The notes beneath the pieces are model-generated. The model saw only the letters and a list, made by a program, of their open reading frames with translations. It was not told the origin of the DNA and ran no database searches. Shown here in pieces: positions 9,557 to 34,167 of a stretch of DNA of 64,000 nt. A program made the translations under genes and the position numbers. Location of the stretch: contig JAEZRQ010000006.1 of the NCBI GenBank assembly GCA_023444045.1, positions 113,786 to 177,785 of the forward strand. Direction: 5' to 3'. How positions within the stretch are numbered: the stretch's first letter is position 1; every line of letters begins with the position of its first letter. Origin of the DNA: Candidatus Parcubacteria bacterium (GTDB taxonomy: Bacteria; Patescibacteriota; Patescibacteriia; Patescibacteriales; UBA12465).

Positions 9557-9585
9557 TTGACAAAAATATTTAAATATGCTATAAT
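9557..9585 (+). promoter_or_regulatory. Consensus sigma70-type promoter
   Basis: TTGACA (9557-9562), 17-nt spacer ending in TGc, TATAAT (9580-9585). Confidence 0.65.
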
Positions 9586-9624
9586 TTGGGCATAGTAAAA
9601 CGTATTTTAAAAAAATAAAGAACC

Positions 9625-10068
9625 ATGAGAAAATTAATTGCTTTTTCTATCGCCAACATTACCTGTGTAATTCTGGCATTTTTTATGATTTTTCTGGGGG
9701 TTAAATTTTATAACTCAATACCCGTCCCGGAAGGAATCGTCCCCGTTTGGAGTTTGATTGTGTTTATCCTCACGGCAGTGGGTATAATGAAGATATTTTA
9801 TTTCATAGTTAACAAAGCTTGCTCTTTTTCTACAATAGAGGGCGCCACTTATGAAATTCTCAAGAAAAAGTTTCCTTACTGGTCGGATGTTACAATAAGA
9901 GATGGTTATCTCTTCATTAGCTGGAAAAGCCTCAGCAAAAATATAATTCATAATTATGAGTTTGACTTTAATCAGAATAAGGCTAAATTCTATGACGAAG
10001 GGGAAGTGGCAAAAATAGTTTTCGAGGGTGACATTAAAAAAGCTGTCTCTAAAATGAGACAGTCTTAA
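9625..10068 (+). CDS. Hypothetical 2-TM membrane protein
   Basis: 147 aa with two hydrophobic helices then a soluble domain. Flanked by a consensus promoter and a terminator. The overlapping minus ORF 9715..10125 looks like an antisense artefact. Confidence 0.6.
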   Translation: MRKLIAFSIANITCVILAFFMIFLGVKFYNSIPVPEGIVPVWSLIVFILTAVGIMKIFYFIVNKACSFSTIEGATYEILKKKFPYWSDVTIRDGYLFISWKSLSKNIIHNYEFDFNQNKAKFYDEGEVAKIVFEGDIKKAVSKMRQS

Positions 10069-16696: not shown

Positions 16697-18469
16697 ATGA
16701 AAGAACTAAAAATCAAGTTTAATTTTGGTGTTTTGGCAGTTATTTTTATTGCTCTGTCTTTTTTTGTGGCGACCTCCAGCTATAACTTCATTACCCAGAA
16801 AGATGGTTTGATTAAATGGAATTCGCCTGATGAAACCGCTAATTATTATTTTGCCAACAGTTATGCTAGGGGAGATGACTTGATTAAATTTGATCATGCC
16901 AGCGCGGTGGCTAGCGATTTAGTTATTCCTAGAAGTCTTAGAAGTGATCACGGCTGGCTTAAACCGGTTAGTTTTTTAGGTATAATTTTAATTTATGGCA
17001 AGATTGGCGCCTTAACGTCCCCATTAGTAATTCCTTATTTAACACCATTTTTTGGGGCACTAGGCATTATCTTTTTCTATTTTTTAATTAGACGCTTATT
17101 TAGTCCCAGAATTGCTCTTATTTCCGCGGCTTTGTTAGCTGTTTTCCCAGTTTATTTATATTATTCCATCAGAAGCATGTTTCATAACGTGCTCTTTTTA
17201 GTTCTCCTGATTATTGCTTTTTATTTTATTGTAAGAGCACTTGATAAAAAGTATTTACACCAGGTAAAACTCAAAATTTTTAGTTTTAGTTTACCAAAAA
17301 ATGTCCTAAGCGGTTGGTTCTTTATATTTATTGGTGGTTTTTTTATTGGTTTAGCGATTATTACCAGATCATCAGAGTTGTTGTGGCTTCTACCGGTGCT
17401 AGCTATTTTAATTTTATGTTATGCTAAACGACTTGGTTCTTTGCGTATATTACTGTTTTTATCAGGCATTGGTTTAGGTTTATTGCCAGCTCTTTACTAC
17501 AACCAGATTCTTTATCAATCTCCTTTTTATGGTGGTTATGGAGAAATGAATCGCACCCTAACTGATATTTCTTTAGCTGGTTCGGAGATGATAAAAAGTA
17601 CCTTTGGTTCACAGATTGCCAGTTATGGAGAATCTATTAATAAGATTTTTAAAAATATTTTCTTCTTCGGCTTTCACCCAGGACAGTCAAAAGAAATGTT
17701 TGGCCACTATGTTGTGAAGATGTTTCCTTGGTTAACTTATCTTGCGGGAGTCGGTGTTCTTGGTCTGATAATTTTAAATATTACCAAACCAAAAAAGAAA
17801 TATTTTGTCTATCTTTTAATTTGGGTAGTTTTATCAGTTATTTTAGTTTTATATTATGGCTCCTGGCGTTTTACCGACAATCCCAATGCTGGTAGTCATA
17901 CTATTGGCAATTCCTATACCCGGTATTGGCTGCCAATGTATTTAATGGCACTACCTTTAGTAGCGCTAGCAATTGAATTATTCTTAAAGCTATTATTCTT
18001 TTTATTTAGAAAAACTAGCGCTTATAGAGCCTTAATTAGCGGCGGCGCAACCGTAATCGTCTTTTTAATATCTCTTTATTCTTTTAATTTCTTACTATTC
18101 GGTTCAGAAGAAGGGATTTTTAACCTCTATTATAATACCCAAGAGGATAAAAGACTGGGTAGGGTAGTTTTAGAAAATACGCCACCGGAAGCAGTTGTTA
18201 TGACGCAGTACCATGATAAAGTCTTATTTCCTGAAAGAAGGATTATTATGGGTCGTTTGGAAGAAGAGCAGTATTACCCTTATCTTGGTAGAATATTAGA
18301 TTATTATCCGGTCTACTACTTTAATTTTAAATACGATCAGGCTACAGTTGATTATTTAAATAATGGTAGGTTAGCTAAGAGTGGCTTGAAAATGGAGTTA
18401 GTTAAAAAGGTTAGTGGACAATTTTCATTATATAAAATTTCTAAGATTGAAAATAAAGATGAAAAGTAA
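16697..18469 (+). CDS. GT-C-like polytopic membrane glycosyltransferase (ArnT/PMT-like)
   Basis: Many TM helices with an early extracytoplasmic loop containing an acidic motif (NSPDETANYYFANSYARGDD), followed by a C-terminal soluble domain. ATG 16697 preferred to TTG 16661. Confidence 0.65.
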   Translation: MKELKIKFNFGVLAVIFIALSFFVATSSYNFITQKDGLIKWNSPDETANYYFANSYARGDDLIKFDHASAVASDLVIPRSLRSDHGWLKPVSFLGIILIYGKIGALTSPLVIPYLTPFFGALGIIFFYFLIRRLFSPRIALISAALLAVFPVYLYYSIRSMFHNVLFLVLLIIAFYFIVRALDKKYLHQVKLKIFSFSLPKNVLSGWFFIFIGGFFIGLAIITRSSELLWLLPVLAILILCYAKRLGSLRILLFLSGIGLGLLPALYYNQILYQSPFYGGYGEMNRTLTDISLAGSEMIKSTFGSQIASYGESINKIFKNIFFFGFHPGQSKEMFGHYVVKMFPWLTYLAGVGVLGLIILNITKPKKKYFVYLLIWVVLSVILVLYYGSWRFTDNPNAGSHTIGNSYTRYWLPMYLMALPLVALAIELFLKLLFFLFRKTSAYRALISGGATVIVFLISLYSFNFLLFGSEEGIFNLYYNTQEDKRLGRVVLENTPPEAVVMTQYHDKVLFPERRIIMGRLEEEQYYPYLGRILDYYPVYYFNFKYDQATVDYLNNGRLAKSGLKMELVKKVSGQFSLYKISKIENKDEK

Positions 18470-19775
18470 AAAATATTATCATTTAATTACTATTGGTTGT
18501 GCCATGAATAAATCAGATAGCGAGCGGGTTGCTAATTTTTTAGAAGGAGAAGGGTATGAAGAAAAGAAAGATTGGCTAGGAGTGCAGTTAGTAATTTTAA
18601 CTACTTGCGGCATTAGGCAATCAGCCGAAGATCGGGTTTATGGTTTAGTGAACCAAATTAGGAAAGTTAATAAAAAAGCAGCTGTTGTAATTACTGGTTG
18701 TTTGGCTAAAAGGAAAGATGTAATGCGTCGTTTAATTGGTCAGGTTGATTTGTTTATGCCAATTAATGAACTGCCTAATCTTTTTACTCTTTTATCTCAA
18801 GCTAGACCTGAGAAAGTTTTAAGTCTAGAGAAGTTAAGGGAACTGGGCGGTGAAAAATATTTAGCAATTACCCCAAAATATGAGAGCAGTTATATTGCCT
18901 ACGTTCCGATTGGTAATGGTTGTAATAATTTTTGCTCCTATTGTGTAGTGCCTTATGCAAGAGGCAGGGAAGTATATCGCCCCGCTAAAGAAATAGTTGC
19001 TGAAGTTAAGTCACTAGCCGCTAAGGGGTATAAAGAAATAGTTTTAATTGCTCAAAACGTTAATAGTTATCAGAGTGATAAGTATAATTTTCCTAAACTA
19101 TTACTTAAGTTAAGTAAAATTACTGGTAATTTTTGGATCCGTTTTTCTTCTAGTCACCCTAAAGATCTTAGTGATGAGTTAATTAAAGTAATTAGCACAT
19201 CTAATAAAATTGCTAATCATCTCCACTTAGCTGTTCAGTCAGGCGATGATAAAATACTGGCCGCCATGAATCGTAAGTATAGCGTCGCTCATTATCGGGA
19301 CTTAATTACTAAAATGAGAGAAGCCAGGCCAAAAATTGCTATTACCACTGATGTGATTGTTGGTTTTCCGGGAGAAACTAAGAAGCAGTTTGCCGGATCG
19401 GTAAAACTTTTTAAAGATTTAAAATTTGAAATGGCTTATATCTCTCAATATAGTCCGCGGCCAGGAACCGTTTCTTGGAATATGAAAGATAATGTTAGTA
19501 GAGAAGAGAAAAAGAGAAGAGAAAAGGTTTTAAACGAAATCATGAGTCAAACATCACTTGAAGCTCATCAAAAATTAATTGGACAAACGATGACAGTCTT
19601 AGTTGATGGTGTTAATGCGAGAGGAAAATTCTATGGCAAAACGTCTGAATCAAAAATGATTTTATTTGTTGATCCTCAAAAAAGAAAAGATTTAAAAATA
19701 ATTGGTGAATTTGTGCTAGTTAAAATAAAAAAAGCCATGACTTTTGGCTTAGAAGGGGAATTAGTTTTGGGGTAA
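18459..19775 (+). CDS. miaB: tRNA-2-methylthio-N6-dimethylallyladenosine synthase (radical SAM methylthiotransferase)
   Basis: UPF0004 N-domain (TIGCAMNKSDSE), radical SAM CxxxCxxC (CNNFCSYCVVP), C-terminal TRAM-like region. ATG 18459 overlaps the previous stop (ATGAAAAGTAA). Confidence 0.92.
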   Translation: MKSKKYYHLITIGCAMNKSDSERVANFLEGEGYEEKKDWLGVQLVILTTCGIRQSAEDRVYGLVNQIRKVNKKAAVVITGCLAKRKDVMRRLIGQVDLFMPINELPNLFTLLSQARPEKVLSLEKLRELGGEKYLAITPKYESSYIAYVPIGNGCNNFCSYCVVPYARGREVYRPAKEIVAEVKSLAAKGYKEIVLIAQNVNSYQSDKYNFPKLLLKLSKITGNFWIRFSSSHPKDLSDELIKVISTSNKIANHLHLAVQSGDDKILAAMNRKYSVAHYRDLITKMREARPKIAITTDVIVGFPGETKKQFAGSVKLFKDLKFEMAYISQYSPRPGTVSWNMKDNVSREEKKRREKVLNEIMSQTSLEAHQKLIGQTMTVLVDGVNARGKFYGKTSESKMILFVDPQKRKDLKIIGEFVLVKIKKAMTFGLEGELVLG

Positions 19776-19930
19776 GAAAAAGGAGAGGATGCGTATACGA
19801 CTTATAACCCCTCCTACTACTAACCATTATGGCTAGTTCAAGTTGTTTGATTGTCACGGCGCCCAAGTTAGGGTCGTTTGTGTAGAACAGCTTCTTCTAC
19901 ACTGTGACTATGCTGTCATCAAACAACGGC
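19774..19930 (-). ncRNA. Unclassified structured small RNA (about 155 nt)
   Basis: Minus-strand consensus promoter upstream. Multi-helix fold: 10-bp GUUGUUUGAU/AUCAAACAAC; GUCAC/GUGAC; 8-bp GUGUAGAA/UUCUACAC; CUAGCC/GGUUAG. Terminal hairpin AGGAGGGG/CCUCUCCU followed by UUUUUCUU. G-U pairs exist only in the minus-strand reading. Region is visibly GC-richer than its flanks. Confidence 0.55.
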
Positions 19931-19936
19931 ATGAAT

Positions 19937-19965
19937 ATATTAGCATTATTTTTTGTATATGTCAA
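19937..19965 (-). promoter_or_regulatory. Consensus promoter driving the small RNA
   Basis: On the minus strand: TTGACA (19965-19960), 17-nt spacer ending in TGc, TAATAT (19942-19937). The -35 box overlaps the miaA ATG on the other strand. Confidence 0.55.
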
Positions 19966-20882
19966 TAGAAGTTATCCACAATCAAAAAGTACTAGTTATC
20001 TTGGGCCCCACCGCCTCAGGAAAGACTTCTTTAGCTGTAAAATTAGCTAAAAAGTATCATGGTGAGATTATTTCGGCGGATAGCCGTCAGGTTTATCGCG
20101 GTCTTGATATTGGCACTGGTAAAGATTTAGGCGAATACGGCCAAGTTCCATATCACTTAATTGATGTGGCTAGTCCAATGGAAGAGTTTAATCTAGCTAA
20201 GTATCAGAAACTAGCTTTGAAGGCGATTAAGGATATTATCTCTCGGGGTAAGTTGCCAATTATTACTGGCGGCACTGGTTTGTATTTACAGGCCATTGTT
20301 GATGGTTATCGTCTGACCCCTTACACCCCTAATCCAAAACGTCGGGCTGAACTTGAAAAACTGTCACCTGTAAAACTATATTCCTTATTATCTAAGGAGA
20401 AACCAGAGTTTGCCGCTAATTTAAATAATAGCGACAAGAATAATCCCAGACGTTTAATTCGTTACATTGAGATTATGGAGTCAGGCGAGAAGAAAAAGCC
20501 GACTAAGAAAAAAATGCCTTACGATTTTCTCTTACTTGGTTTAGAGCAGGATGACGAAGAGATGAGAAAAAGAATTATAAAAAGAATTAAGGACCGCTTA
20601 GATAATGAAGATATGTTGGGAGAAGTGGAGCGTTTAATTGACGCCGGTGTCTCTGTTTCTTGGCTTAATTCTCTCGGTCTAGAATATCGCCATCTGACTT
20701 GGTATCTACAAGATAAATTAAATTATGAAGAAATGCTTGAGCGCTTAGGTGCCGCCACCTATCGTTTTGCTAAGCGTCAAAAAACTTGGTTTAAAAGATG
20801 GCAGAAGCAGGGACGAGAGATTAGTTGGATTAGCAATTTTAGTGAAGCTAATTATAAAATAAAAGCTTGGTTAAAAAAATGA
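19959..20882 (+). CDS. miaA: tRNA dimethylallyltransferase
   Basis: P-loop GPTASGKTS, ISADSRQVYRGLDIGTGK, RYAKRQKTWF-like C-terminus (RFAKRQKTWFKRW). Confidence 0.93.
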   Translation: MSIEVIHNQKVLVILGPTASGKTSLAVKLAKKYHGEIISADSRQVYRGLDIGTGKDLGEYGQVPYHLIDVASPMEEFNLAKYQKLALKAIKDIISRGKLPIITGGTGLYLQAIVDGYRLTPYTPNPKRRAELEKLSPVKLYSLLSKEKPEFAANLNNSDKNNPRRLIRYIEIMESGEKKKPTKKKMPYDFLLLGLEQDDEEMRKRIIKRIKDRLDNEDMLGEVERLIDAGVSVSWLNSLGLEYRHLTWYLQDKLNYEEMLERLGAATYRFAKRQKTWFKRWQKQGREISWISNFSEANYKIKAWLKK

Positions 20883-20900
20883 GCCATTTAGGCCCATTTT

Positions 20901-22406
20901 TTATTTTAACTTTTCCTCTAGTATTTTTCTCAATATTTCTGGATTAGCTTTACCTTTCGTCTCAGCCATTGCTTTGCCGATAAAGAATTGGATGAGTGGT
21001 GTTTTTCCTTTTTTATATTCTTCATGTTGTTTGGGATTATCTGTGATTACTTTAGCAATTACAGTTTCTAATTCTTCTTGATTATCAATTTGTTCTAAGC
21101 CTAACTCTTCTAAAATGTTGCTTGGATCGCCGCCTTTTTGATACATCACTTCTAAAATTGTTTGAGCAGCGCTGGAATTTATTTTTCCTTGATAAATTAG
21201 ATGTATTAGTTCAGCAAAATTTTCTGGCGTGATATGCAAATCTTCAATATCTTTGTGGTCAGTCTTAAGGTGTTTTAGTAATTCGCTGGAGATCCAATTG
21301 ACCGCTATTTGGGCTAATTTTTTATCTTGGCGTTCTAAAGAATCGCCACTGGCAGTTGTCCAAGCTCCTAATTCAGAAATCACCTGTTCGGTCCAATTAG
21401 CTAATTTTTTGTCATAGGTAATTAAATCAACTAAATCTTTTTTAAGATGATATTGCCTAATAAAGCGAATACTTTTTTCTTCCGGCATTTCGCCAATCTC
21501 TGTCATAATATCAGCGATCATATCATCAGAAATGTTAAGTGGCGGAATGTCTGGTTCTGGAAAATAACGGTAGTCAGCGCTACTTTCTTTAATTCTTTGG
21601 CTTTTTGTTTCGTTTTTATTGTCATCCCAACCTCTAGTTTCAGCCATAACCACTCCGTCATTTTCTAGTAGTTCAGTTTGTCTTTTTATTTCAAAGTTAA
21701 TCGCTTTTTCCAGTGACTTAAAGGAATTAATATTTTTAACCTCTACCTTAGGGTTTAATTGATATTTTTTTAGCGGTTTTATCTGACCATCTTCATATTT
21801 CCATTTGCCACTTTCTTGTAAACTAACATTAGCCTCACAGCGCATTTGGCCTTTTTCCATTTCAGCATCAGAGATATCTAGGTATCTTAGAAGTTGTTGG
21901 AATTTTTGACAGAATTTCTTGGCTGTCGCTGCATCTTTAATAACCGGTTCAGTAACCATTTCCAATAGTGGTGTGCCGGCACGATTAAAATCAATTAAGG
22001 TGTGGTCGCTATTTTTGGGATGAAAAGATTTACCAGTATCTTCTTCTAGGTGGATTCTGGTAATTAAGATTTTTTCCTCATCAATTTCTAAATACCCTTG
22101 ATAGCATAGAGGTAAGTCATATTGAGATATCTGGTAACCTTTTGGTAAATCAGGGTAGAAATAATTTTTACGGTCAAATTTAGAAGTTCTGTTGATGGTA
22201 CAATTAGTAGCTAGTCCCGCTAGAATAACCAGCTCAATAGCTCTTTTATTGGGTACTGGCAAAGTTCCTGGGTGGCCTAAGCAAATAGGGCAAACAGTTG
22301 TATTAGCCTCTTTTTCTTCGCTATCATTATCACAAGCGCAGAACATTTTGCTTTTAGTTTTTATTTCAGCGTGGATTTCCAAGCCGATAATAGCATCATA
22401 TGTCAT
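20901..22406 (-). CDS. gatB: Asp/Glu-tRNA(Asn/Gln) amidotransferase subunit B
   Basis: Full-length GatB: N-terminal YDAIIGLEIHAE, CPICLGHPGTLP, C-terminal YqeY/GatB tail (FFIGKAMAETKGKANP). Confidence 0.97.
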   Translation of the reverse strand: MTYDAIIGLEIHAEIKTKSKMFCACDNDSEEKEANTTVCPICLGHPGTLPVPNKRAIELVILAGLATNCTINRTSKFDRKNYFYPDLPKGYQISQYDLPLCYQGYLEIDEEKILITRIHLEEDTGKSFHPKNSDHTLIDFNRAGTPLLEMVTEPVIKDAATAKKFCQKFQQLLRYLDISDAEMEKGQMRCEANVSLQESGKWKYEDGQIKPLKKYQLNPKVEVKNINSFKSLEKAINFEIKRQTELLENDGVVMAETRGWDDNKNETKSQRIKESSADYRYFPEPDIPPLNISDDMIADIMTEIGEMPEEKSIRFIRQYHLKKDLVDLITYDKKLANWTEQVISELGAWTTASGDSLERQDKKLAQIAVNWISSELLKHLKTDHKDIEDLHITPENFAELIHLIYQGKINSSAAQTILEVMYQKGGDPSNILEELGLEQIDNQEELETVIAKVITDNPKQHEEYKKGKTPLIQFFIGKAMAETKGKANPEILRKILEEKLK

Positions 22407-34060: not shown

Positions 34061-34088
34061 TTGACATTTTTCAAATATTTGGTAATAT
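34061..34088 (+). promoter_or_regulatory. Putative rplU promoter
   Basis: TTGACA (34061-34066), 16-nt spacer ending in TGg, TAATAT (34083-34088). Confidence 0.55.
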
Positions 34089-34102
34089 AAGAACGTATCT
34101 TA

Positions 34103-34142
34103 AGCCAAGCGTGGCAGCGCCCTTTGCCTATTGGCTGTTTTT
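34103..34142 (+). promoter_or_regulatory. Terminator-like hairpin in the rplU 5' leader (possible r-protein autoregulatory attenuator)
   Basis: AGCCAA...TTGGCT outer stem enclosing GGC-agc-GCC, followed by GTTTTT. Located between the promoter and the rplU ATG. Confidence 0.4.
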
Positions 34143-34167
34143 ATTCTTAAATTAGTAAAATTATCCT

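Follow-up and report, generated by a model that had tools for sequence, protein, structure and literature searches.

We examined the spacer between miaB and miaA in a 64,000-nt stretch of contig JAEZRQ010000006.1 from a Candidatus Parcubacteria bacterium (assembly GCA_023444045.1), the whole of which is referred to below as the window. Both genes lie on the plus strand: miaB (18459..19775, start as called in relatives) encodes a radical-SAM methylthiotransferase with the Pfam domains UPF0004, Radical_SAM and TRAM, and miaA (19959..20882) encodes a tRNA dimethylallyltransferase with the Pfam domain IPPT. Their nearest MiaA relatives come from metagenome-assembled genomes of the Patescibacteria, or candidate phyla radiation (CPR), several of which are labelled Candidatus Falkowbacteria. 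A first-pass annotation, made from the letters of the window, had proposed a structured RNA on the minus strand of the spacer. Our analysis supports a discrete unit on the minus strand that has a promoter and a terminator of its own, and we see about an even chance that this unit is a real, lineage-specific gene for a structured, non-coding small RNA (sRNA).

Layout, promoter and fold of the spacer unit

As the annotation had stated, the gap measures 183 nt, from the miaB stop codon (19773-19775) to the miaA ATG at 19959. It had also been described as visibly richer in G+C than its flanks; at 0.40-0.43 the spacer does lie above the window mean of about 0.35, but the contrast is weak, with miaA just downstream reaching 0.46. 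The plus strand carries no terminator after miaB, so read-through from miaB into miaA is likely. The only coding sequence that the sRNA unit overlaps is the end of the miaB stop codon, whose last bases are covered by the U-tract.

The predicted promoter was recovered at the coordinates first given for it, as a correctly spaced sigma-70-type promoter recognised from sequence alone. Its −35 element, TTGACA (19960..19965, minus strand), overlaps the miaA start codon as claimed and reaches from the TG of the ATG across the Ser codon into the first base of codon 3. After a 17-nt spacer ending in TGC comes TAATAT, the two together forming an extended −10 element (19937..19945, minus strand), and the site scored 10/12 with TG in a consensus scan. 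From the position of the −10 element, we infer a transcription start near G19930. On the plus strand, a weaker promoter-like site, CTGTCA-17-TATATT (19913..19941), matched the consensus at 9/12; it is a candidate miaA promoter on the strength of that match, and its −10 overlaps the minus-strand −10.

A search of all 64 kb for perfect −35 promoters with a hairpin and T-run behind them gave four pairs. Three were inspected: one closes a protein gene, another forms a leader in front of an rplU-like gene, and the third, the sRNA unit, is the only orphan of the three; the fourth pair lies at 9557-9686 on the plus strand. Sites with a perfect −35 and TAnnnT numbered 10 in the 64 kb, against about 4-5 expected by chance.

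The predicted non-coding RNA, which we call B-type, is about 155 nt long (19774..19930, minus strand) and has its 3' end in the U-tract at 19780-19774. Folded from 19930 to 19774, the minus strand reached −49.9 kcal/mol (z −3.86), with 0/200 dinucleotide shuffles as stable and with the minimum free energy (MFE) structure identical to the centroid; the plus strand reached −42.3 kcal/mol (z −1.78). Every helix named in the first-pass annotation reappeared in the minus-strand MFE fold. Its largest part is a closed domain (19842..19927) made up of P1 (10 bp, 19927-19918 with 19851-19842), a 9-nt 5' bulge containing GCAU (19917-19909), P2 (5 bp, GUCAC/GUGAC, 19908-19904 with 19857-19853), the 8-bp hairpin P3 (19902-19880) and a small hairpin, P3b (19876-19860). 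The hairpin P4 (ACUAGCCA / UGGUUAGU, 19819..19837) follows, with one G-U pair. Last comes a Rho-independent terminator on the same strand (19774..19815), which appears in the fold and is conserved in a related locus described below. Its G+C-rich stem of 8 bp (AGGAGGGG/CCUCUCCU, 19815-19808 with 19788-19781) is followed by the tract UUUUUCUU (19780-19774), which runs into the miaB stop codon. The description of this terminator as canonical held for the stem and U-tract but not for the loop, which at 19 nt is unusually large; a simple terminator scan did not list it because that loop exceeds the scan's loop limit of 8.

The observation that had been used to fix the strand could be repeated: the MFE fold contains two G-U pairs on the minus strand that would be A-C mismatches on the plus strand. 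T-tracts occur on the minus strand only, both here and in every related unit. The minus-strand assignment holds on account of these T-tracts and G-U pairs together with the asymmetry of the fold between strands.

The RNA belongs to no family in Rfam 15, Y RNA/YrlA, GadY, ribozymes and riboswitches included, as had been anticipated; at the gathering threshold the window gave four tRNAs only, and at E ≤ 10 there were chance-level matches, none of them on the RNA body. The copy in the related locus L026 (also at E ≤ 10) and 12 related loci gave 0 Rfam matches, and ARAGORN found no tRNA or transfer-messenger RNA (tmRNA) gene in 19500-20200. The housekeeping RNAs that had been set aside by eye were accordingly not recovered: neither Rfam 15 nor ARAGORN returned a tmRNA; RNase P RNA had no Rfam 15 match; signal recognition particle (SRP) RNA gave no match at E ≤ 10, and the apical loops differ wholly between the window and L026; and 6S RNA gave no match, the MFE and centroid structures being a closed three-way domain plus two hairpins, not a rod of about 180 nt with a central bubble. 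Searches with blastn and nhmmer yielded no sequence homologue of the RNA among 19 GTDB genome loci, the terminator-loop pattern had 0 matches in JGI metagenomes and IMG/VR, and blastn against phage and plasmid collections gave no match to the RNA. A repeated mobile element of the MITE, REP or PATE kind was rejected, as the 64-kb window holds no second copy. No small open reading frame (ORF) with a Shine-Dalgarno sequence was found in the sRNA unit, and none is common to L026 either.

A slot with changing cargos in related loci

Adjacency of miaB and miaA is conserved among relatives, whose spacers we recovered via exact-protein look-ups and one metagenome scan. Distant relatives (MiaA identity up to about 64%) and locus L014 (77%) mostly have overlapping or abutting genes with no spacer. 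The clade nearest to the window, along with a few deeper-branching lineages (MiaA identity as low as 54%), has spacers of 91-703 nt. Each of them consists of one or two minus-strand units, every unit having a promoter of the form TTGACA-17-TAnnnT (mostly with TGn) and a G/A-rich hairpin that leads into T6-8; T-tracts on the plus strand are absent from all units. The −35 is kept as TTGACA (or TTGTCA/TTTACC) in all spacer-bearing relatives, and the TGn + TAnnnT arrangement is retained in 10 related lineages. About 10 lineages have the full TTGACA-17-TGnTAnnnT promoter at the start of miaA, and loci with no spacer lack it; ATGTCAA (= TTGACAT) is present in the no-spacer loci L014 and L002 too, but no −10 accompanies it there. 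This recurrence in some 10 lineages, and the absence where there is no spacer, lend strong comparative support to the promoter and terminator being real and to the strand being right. We infer a conserved slot in this Falkowbacteria-like clade, defined by the promoter and by the placement of the terminator.

The slot holds different cargos in different lineages: at least four unrelated RNA types and a family of 43-50 aa ORFs, none of these units being in Rfam. The commonest, A-type (65-140 nt, minus strand), was found in L022, L023, L025-L029, L034-L037 and L038-L041. It carries the motif AAYCCRATCTTTTTT...AAATCAC, which is kept in relatives at 74-88% MiaA identity and reads AAYCCRAUCUUUUUU...AAAUCAC at the 5' side of the RNA, and ends in the terminator GAGAGACAnnAUGUCUCUC+U6-8. 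Its copies lie at 2909-3000 in L022, 2728-2827 in L026 and 2862-3000 in L034, in the second unit of L023 and in the first unit of L038, L039 and L040, as well as in L025, L027 and L029; no relocated A-type copy was found elsewhere in the window. B-type is restricted to the window and L026, C-type to L023, L024 and L028, and D1-type to L030 and L061. D2-type (about 250 nt, minus strand) occurs in L030 (~2297-2590), in the second units of L038/L041 and L060, and partly in L039. It contains the strongly conserved blocks UAUACUAGUUUCAACAAAAUGUUGA, AAUUCUAGUGCUUAA and CGACGGCAAAGUAU and, in L030, L038 and L039, a short ORF of 13-20 aa beginning MK(K)RRQ; D2 may encode either a peptide or an RNA. 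Some sequences of the window RNA resemble D2 (ACTAACCAT; GCCGTTGTTTGATG versus GCCGTCGTTTCATG), at a level judged to be within chance. The ORF cargo (43-50 aa, minus strand) was found in L007 (2617-2956), L009 (2639-2950) and L051 (1186-1487), each time with a good Shine-Dalgarno sequence and with the shared N-terminal pattern M[KR]N.Q[FI].P..F..[KR][KQ]NA[NL]; these ORFs had no Pfam match.

Where units are stacked (L026, L023, L030, L038 and L060), the inner ones have TTGACA-17-TAnnnT promoters of their own that overlap no start codon. The first ~20 nt of miaA also recur in degenerate form between stacked units (GTGTCAATGGCTTGTTAAGAG; ATGTCAAAATAAAAAGAG), at 2790-2830 in L026 and ~2775-2800 in L023. 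These remnants suggest that cassettes were exchanged by recombination and moved together with the miaA 5' end. The window RNA appears to be a lineage-specific cargo of the slot, of a type it has in common with L026 only. It cannot be a conserved regulator of miaA, since sister lineages carry unrelated cargos, including small ORFs, in the same place.

L026 (81% MiaA identity) has an A-type unit followed by a B-type unit adjoining miaA, and is the only other locus with this RNA type. Promoter and terminator are about 83-90% identical between the two; the terminator stem, loop and tail agree at 33/40 positions, and the loop, UUAUAAGUCGUAUACGCAU, keeps the motif GGGGUUAUAAG..UCGnAUACGCA. At 4-fold degenerate sites identity is 53% in miaA and 45% in miaB, so purifying selection acts on the ends of the unit. 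The body is far less alike; a structure-fitted alignment gives 38% identity for paired columns and 30% for unpaired ones. The order of elements is the same in both (P1, bulge, P2, P3, P4, terminator), at the same distances from the −10 and the terminator, and common traits are a P1 of 9-10 bp starting GUUG, a 9-10-nt 5' bulge with GCAU and a P2 of 5 bp. L026 lacks P3b and has a different hairpin (GGGUG/CACCU) at the place of P4.

The tree-edit distance between the two MFE structures was 44, whereas 1000 dinucleotide-shuffled versions of the L026 body gave 76 ± 9.9; only 1/1000 shuffles came as close in shape, and a closing helix like P1 arose in 31/1000. Among pairs of the fitted alignment, 15 had changed on both sides, 5 on one side and 1 was broken, counts that lean towards structure because the alignment was fitted to that structure. 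A full-length single-sequence covariance model (R2) hit L026 2838-2972 on the minus strand (E 1.8e-6, 31.7 bits), a score carried mostly by the terminator, given that a body-only model (R1) misses L026; the alignment made by Infernal keeps P1, the GCAU bulge, P2, P4 and the terminator in register. Model R2 found no further B-type copy in 11 related loci. On conservation or covariation of the helices in relatives, which the annotation had set as its own test, the outcome is mixed: L026 keeps the architecture, the promoter and the terminator loop, but most relatives have no such RNA and the body is nearly unalignable. We regard the structural conservation between the window and L026 as suggestive.

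A DnaA-box-like motif at the start of miaA

The first eight codons of miaA contain, besides the −35 of the divergent promoter, a perfect DnaA-box-like 9-mer, TTATCCACA (19972..19980, plus strand; TGTGGATAA on the minus strand), spread over codons 5-8 (GTT ATC CAC A). It stands 6 nt upstream of the sRNA −35 in the window and 5-6 nt upstream across six lineages. Relative to miaA it occupies the identical positions +14..+22 in the window, L030 (3014-3022), L060, L061, L009 and L051, whose MiaA proteins range from 54 to 100% identity. The encoded residues are V/F-I-H-K/N, and MSxxVIH[KN] is the start of roughly one in three of the 120 closest MiaA homologues. The 9-mer is always encoded with ATC and CAC, which are disfavoured in the window (15% of Ile and 40% of His codons), and in L060 a change from V to F keeps the DNA motif. 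The fixed position, the disfavoured codons, the L060 substitution and the recurrent MSxxVIH[KN] starts argue together for constraint on the motif at the DNA level. The L026 variant, TTATTAATA, has three mismatches to the DnaA box, and A-type loci have no box.

DnaA boxes are not enriched in the window as a whole (17 observed versus 16.8 expected at up to one mismatch). A role of the site as part of oriC was rejected, the boxes not being enriched and the GC skew showing no switch. What was found is a consensus box at a conserved position beside a promoter, the arrangement of a DnaA-regulated promoter with putative binding. Only tentatively, we propose that the unit of real interest is the slot and not this RNA: a divergent extended −10 promoter with a DnaA box, lying in the first eight miaA codons and conserved down to 54% MiaA identity, would drive interchangeable cassettes for structured RNAs or peptides of about 45 aa that end exactly at the miaB stop; we think this rather doubtful. 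If DnaA does bind, the status of the replication initiator would be coupled to a tRNA-modification gene, to swappable small genes or to both in bacteria with minimal genomes, and the MiaA N-terminus MSxxVIH[KN] would be dictated by a regulatory DNA sequence, not by protein function. The motif is a concrete, testable hint of replication-linked control of tRNA modification.

Readings of the unit and comparison with known systems

The reading that we favour takes the unit as a small gene in its own right. Transcription would start near 19930 at the extended −10 sigma-70-type promoter and head away from miaA, and the transcript of about 155 nt would fold into the closed P1-P2-P3 domain and the P4 hairpin, ending at the intrinsic terminator that abuts the miaB stop. 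The product would be a stable, structured sRNA whose function resides in the RNA itself, presumably by way of a protein partner or a target in trans. Its likeliest recognition surface would be the 19-nt terminator loop, the sole conserved unpaired sequence of the B-type RNA. Two side effects would be unavoidable if both strands are transcribed. RNA polymerase on this strong promoter would cover the miaA start and the overlapping candidate miaA −10, and the sRNA would be perfectly complementary to any read-through transcript from miaB into miaA. Regulation of miaA, such as the cis-antisense or interference switch of the annotation, is possible.

Several observations weigh against this reading. 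The body has diverged further than neutral (4-fold) sites, and 30% identity in its unpaired regions would be unusual for an RNA that binds a ligand or a protein. Body-only model R1 did not recover L026, all its matches being unrelated and at E > 1; the L026 copy folds equally well on both strands (plus-strand z −2.63); the 19-nt terminator loop is atypical; and with two copies only, the RNA type is too sparse for statistical covariation. The two bodies may be unrelated inserts that are merely alike in shape.

Some of the same facts can be read as signs of a device that works in cis and whose RNA product is irrelevant. Divergent transcription on the miaA start, possibly gated by DnaA, would then act through occlusion, interference or GadY-like antisense-directed processing, leaving the cargo free to drift or be swapped. 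Across about 10 lineages the conserved features are indeed the promoter and its placement on the miaA start, together with a terminator at the miaB stop, while cargo is replaced wholesale; the minus and plus −10 elements overlap, the missing plus-strand terminator after miaB leads one to expect read-through, and the B-type body evolves faster than neutral sites. Stacked second units far from the miaA start (L026-A, L030-D2, L038-D2 and L060-D2) nevertheless keep perfect promoters, and cargos are individually conserved. A streamlined CPR genome should moreover have shrunk an irrelevant, GC-rich insert of 155 nt (the shortest version in the slot is about 65 nt), and many relatives do with overlapping miaB and miaA and no device. 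We favour the small gene in its own right over such a device because of the individually conserved sister cargos and the inner units that keep their promoters off miaA. Promoter occlusion and antisense pairing may still be the selected function of the slot, an explanation that we rank second and hold to be unlikely. A neutral by-product seems to us distinctly improbable. It would be the scar of a recombination or insertion in a hypervariable junction, in which a chance promoter arose from the miaA ATGTCAA and AT-rich DNA, the transcript is spurious and the terminator shields miaB. The ATGTCAA sequence is there even without a spacer (L014, L002), the miaA 5' remnants in L026 and L023 indicate illegitimate recombination, and four or five perfect −35 + TAnnnT sites are to be expected by chance in 64 kb. 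Chance would hardly conserve promoter and terminator far better than 4-fold sites, or keep the TGn of the extended −10 in 10 lineages and consensus promoters in internal units; the fold z-score of −3.86 and the architecture common to L026 point the same way.

The remaining explanations deserve little weight. Were the structured element to function on the plus strand, as an intercistronic region or miaA leader in the miaB-miaA transcript (a processing site, stabiliser or riboswitch-like element), one would expect what is seen in part: with no plus-strand terminator the region is probably transcribed on that strand too, the plus strand folds as well (z −1.78 in the window, −2.63 in L026), and Watson-Crick compensatory changes do not separate the strands. 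Against this, the plus fold is the weaker one in the window and has A-C mismatches in place of the G-U pairs, each unit in each lineage has its T-tract and promoter on the minus strand, Rfam gave no cis-regulatory match, and most relatives lack the element; we consider this reading still less probable than a neutral by-product. It is very improbable that the RNA is a divergent housekeeping RNA (SRP, 6S, Y-RNA-like or similar) escaping the Rfam models in CPR genomes. RNAs of this radiation are often atypical, and size, stability and an own promoter and terminator would fit; yet the RNA is present in only two examined lineages, with unrelated cargos in sister lineages, no loop sequence of the body is conserved, Rfam has no match at E ≤ 10 and the multi-branched fold is neither a 6S-type rod nor an SRP hairpin. 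Least credible of all is a coding function, either for a small protein, as in L007, L009 and L051, or for a type I toxin. Sister lineages do have ORFs of 43-50 aa with ribosome-binding sites in the slot, and the window has a 48-aa ORF with a TTG start (19866-19720, minus strand). That ORF, however, has no Shine-Dalgarno sequence, crosses the terminator into antisense miaB and lacks a counterpart in L026; the AGGAGG at 19815-19810 belongs to the terminator stem and has no start codon after it, and a short ATG frame at 19932 would encode 11 aa and is missing from L026.

By kind, the sRNA unit is an ordinary-looking bacterial sRNA gene in a GadY-like position, and it is in no described family. 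GadY of Escherichia coli (gadX-gadW; RF00122) is an sRNA encoded in cis at the junction of an operon, and it has a promoter and an intrinsic terminator of its own. Like GadY, the unit lies on the opposite strand in the spacer of two co-directional genes, and its RNA, being complementary to a read-through mRNA, could direct processing or decouple the genes. Unlike GadY, it is known here from sequence alone; the two have no sequence or structure similarity and no Rfam match in common, the window RNA is longer and multi-branched, and its promoter overlaps the start codon of the downstream gene. We know of no interchangeable slot cargos in relatives for gadY. Ordinary trans-acting sRNA genes resemble the unit in the extended −10 promoter, the length of about 155 nt, the stem-loops, the hairpin with U-tract, the intergenic location, the restriction to a lineage and the fast evolution; the window RNA differs in having no identified conserved single-stranded seed in its body.

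DnaA boxes control promoters of small genes elsewhere, at sda in Bacillus subtilis and nrdAB and dnaA in E. coli. The miaA site is similar in that a perfect consensus box lies right upstream of a −35 driving a small product, at a position conserved in six lineages; it differs in being a single box, not a cluster, inside coding sequence, with putative binding. Overlapping or face-to-face promoters that interfere with transcription, by promoter occlusion or in an "excludon"-like arrangement, are likewise comparable, given that a strong promoter would fire across the regulatory region of a neighbouring gene and away from it and that the minus and plus −10 elements overlap, but the predicted antisense transcript in the window is short and terminated before the miaB coding sequence.

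In the literature searched, no sRNA biology is described for the uncultured CPR host group, and searches on CPR sRNAs, on antisense RNA to miaA and on a DnaA box with miaA returned nothing relevant. To our knowledge, almost nothing is known about non-coding RNAs and promoter architecture in CPR/Patescibacteria. If transcribed, the unit would be among the first sRNA candidates in this radiation with comparative support. The significance of the RNA itself is modest, as it occurs in two known metagenomic lineages; the slot with swappable cargos and its DnaA-box-like motif are more unusual than the RNA, and the comparison shows that small genes can turn over rapidly between a fixed promoter and terminator even in streamlined genomes.

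Three further features were seen in the window. About 25 nt past the sRNA terminator, within the last miaB codons, is a second terminator-like hairpin with T-run (AAGCCAAAAGTCATGGCTT TTTTTATTTT, 19732-19750, minus strand); a similar hairpin is present in L014, and it may be a simple consequence of the conserved KKA[ML]TFG codons. The leader returned by the promoter-terminator scan (34061-34167, plus strand) has TTGACA-17-TAATAT and a hairpin with T-run followed by the rplU-like ORF (MKIAIIKTGGKQYR, 34168); Rfam has no match there, and the arrangement looks like an L21-leader-like attenuator. At the far end of miaA, this gene and gatB are convergent and 18 nt apart. Their junction (20876-20906) forms a compact A7-hairpin-T7 bidirectional terminator, and the idea that the spacer terminator serves to stop read-through from gatB was rejected, the junction having this bidirectional terminator of its own.

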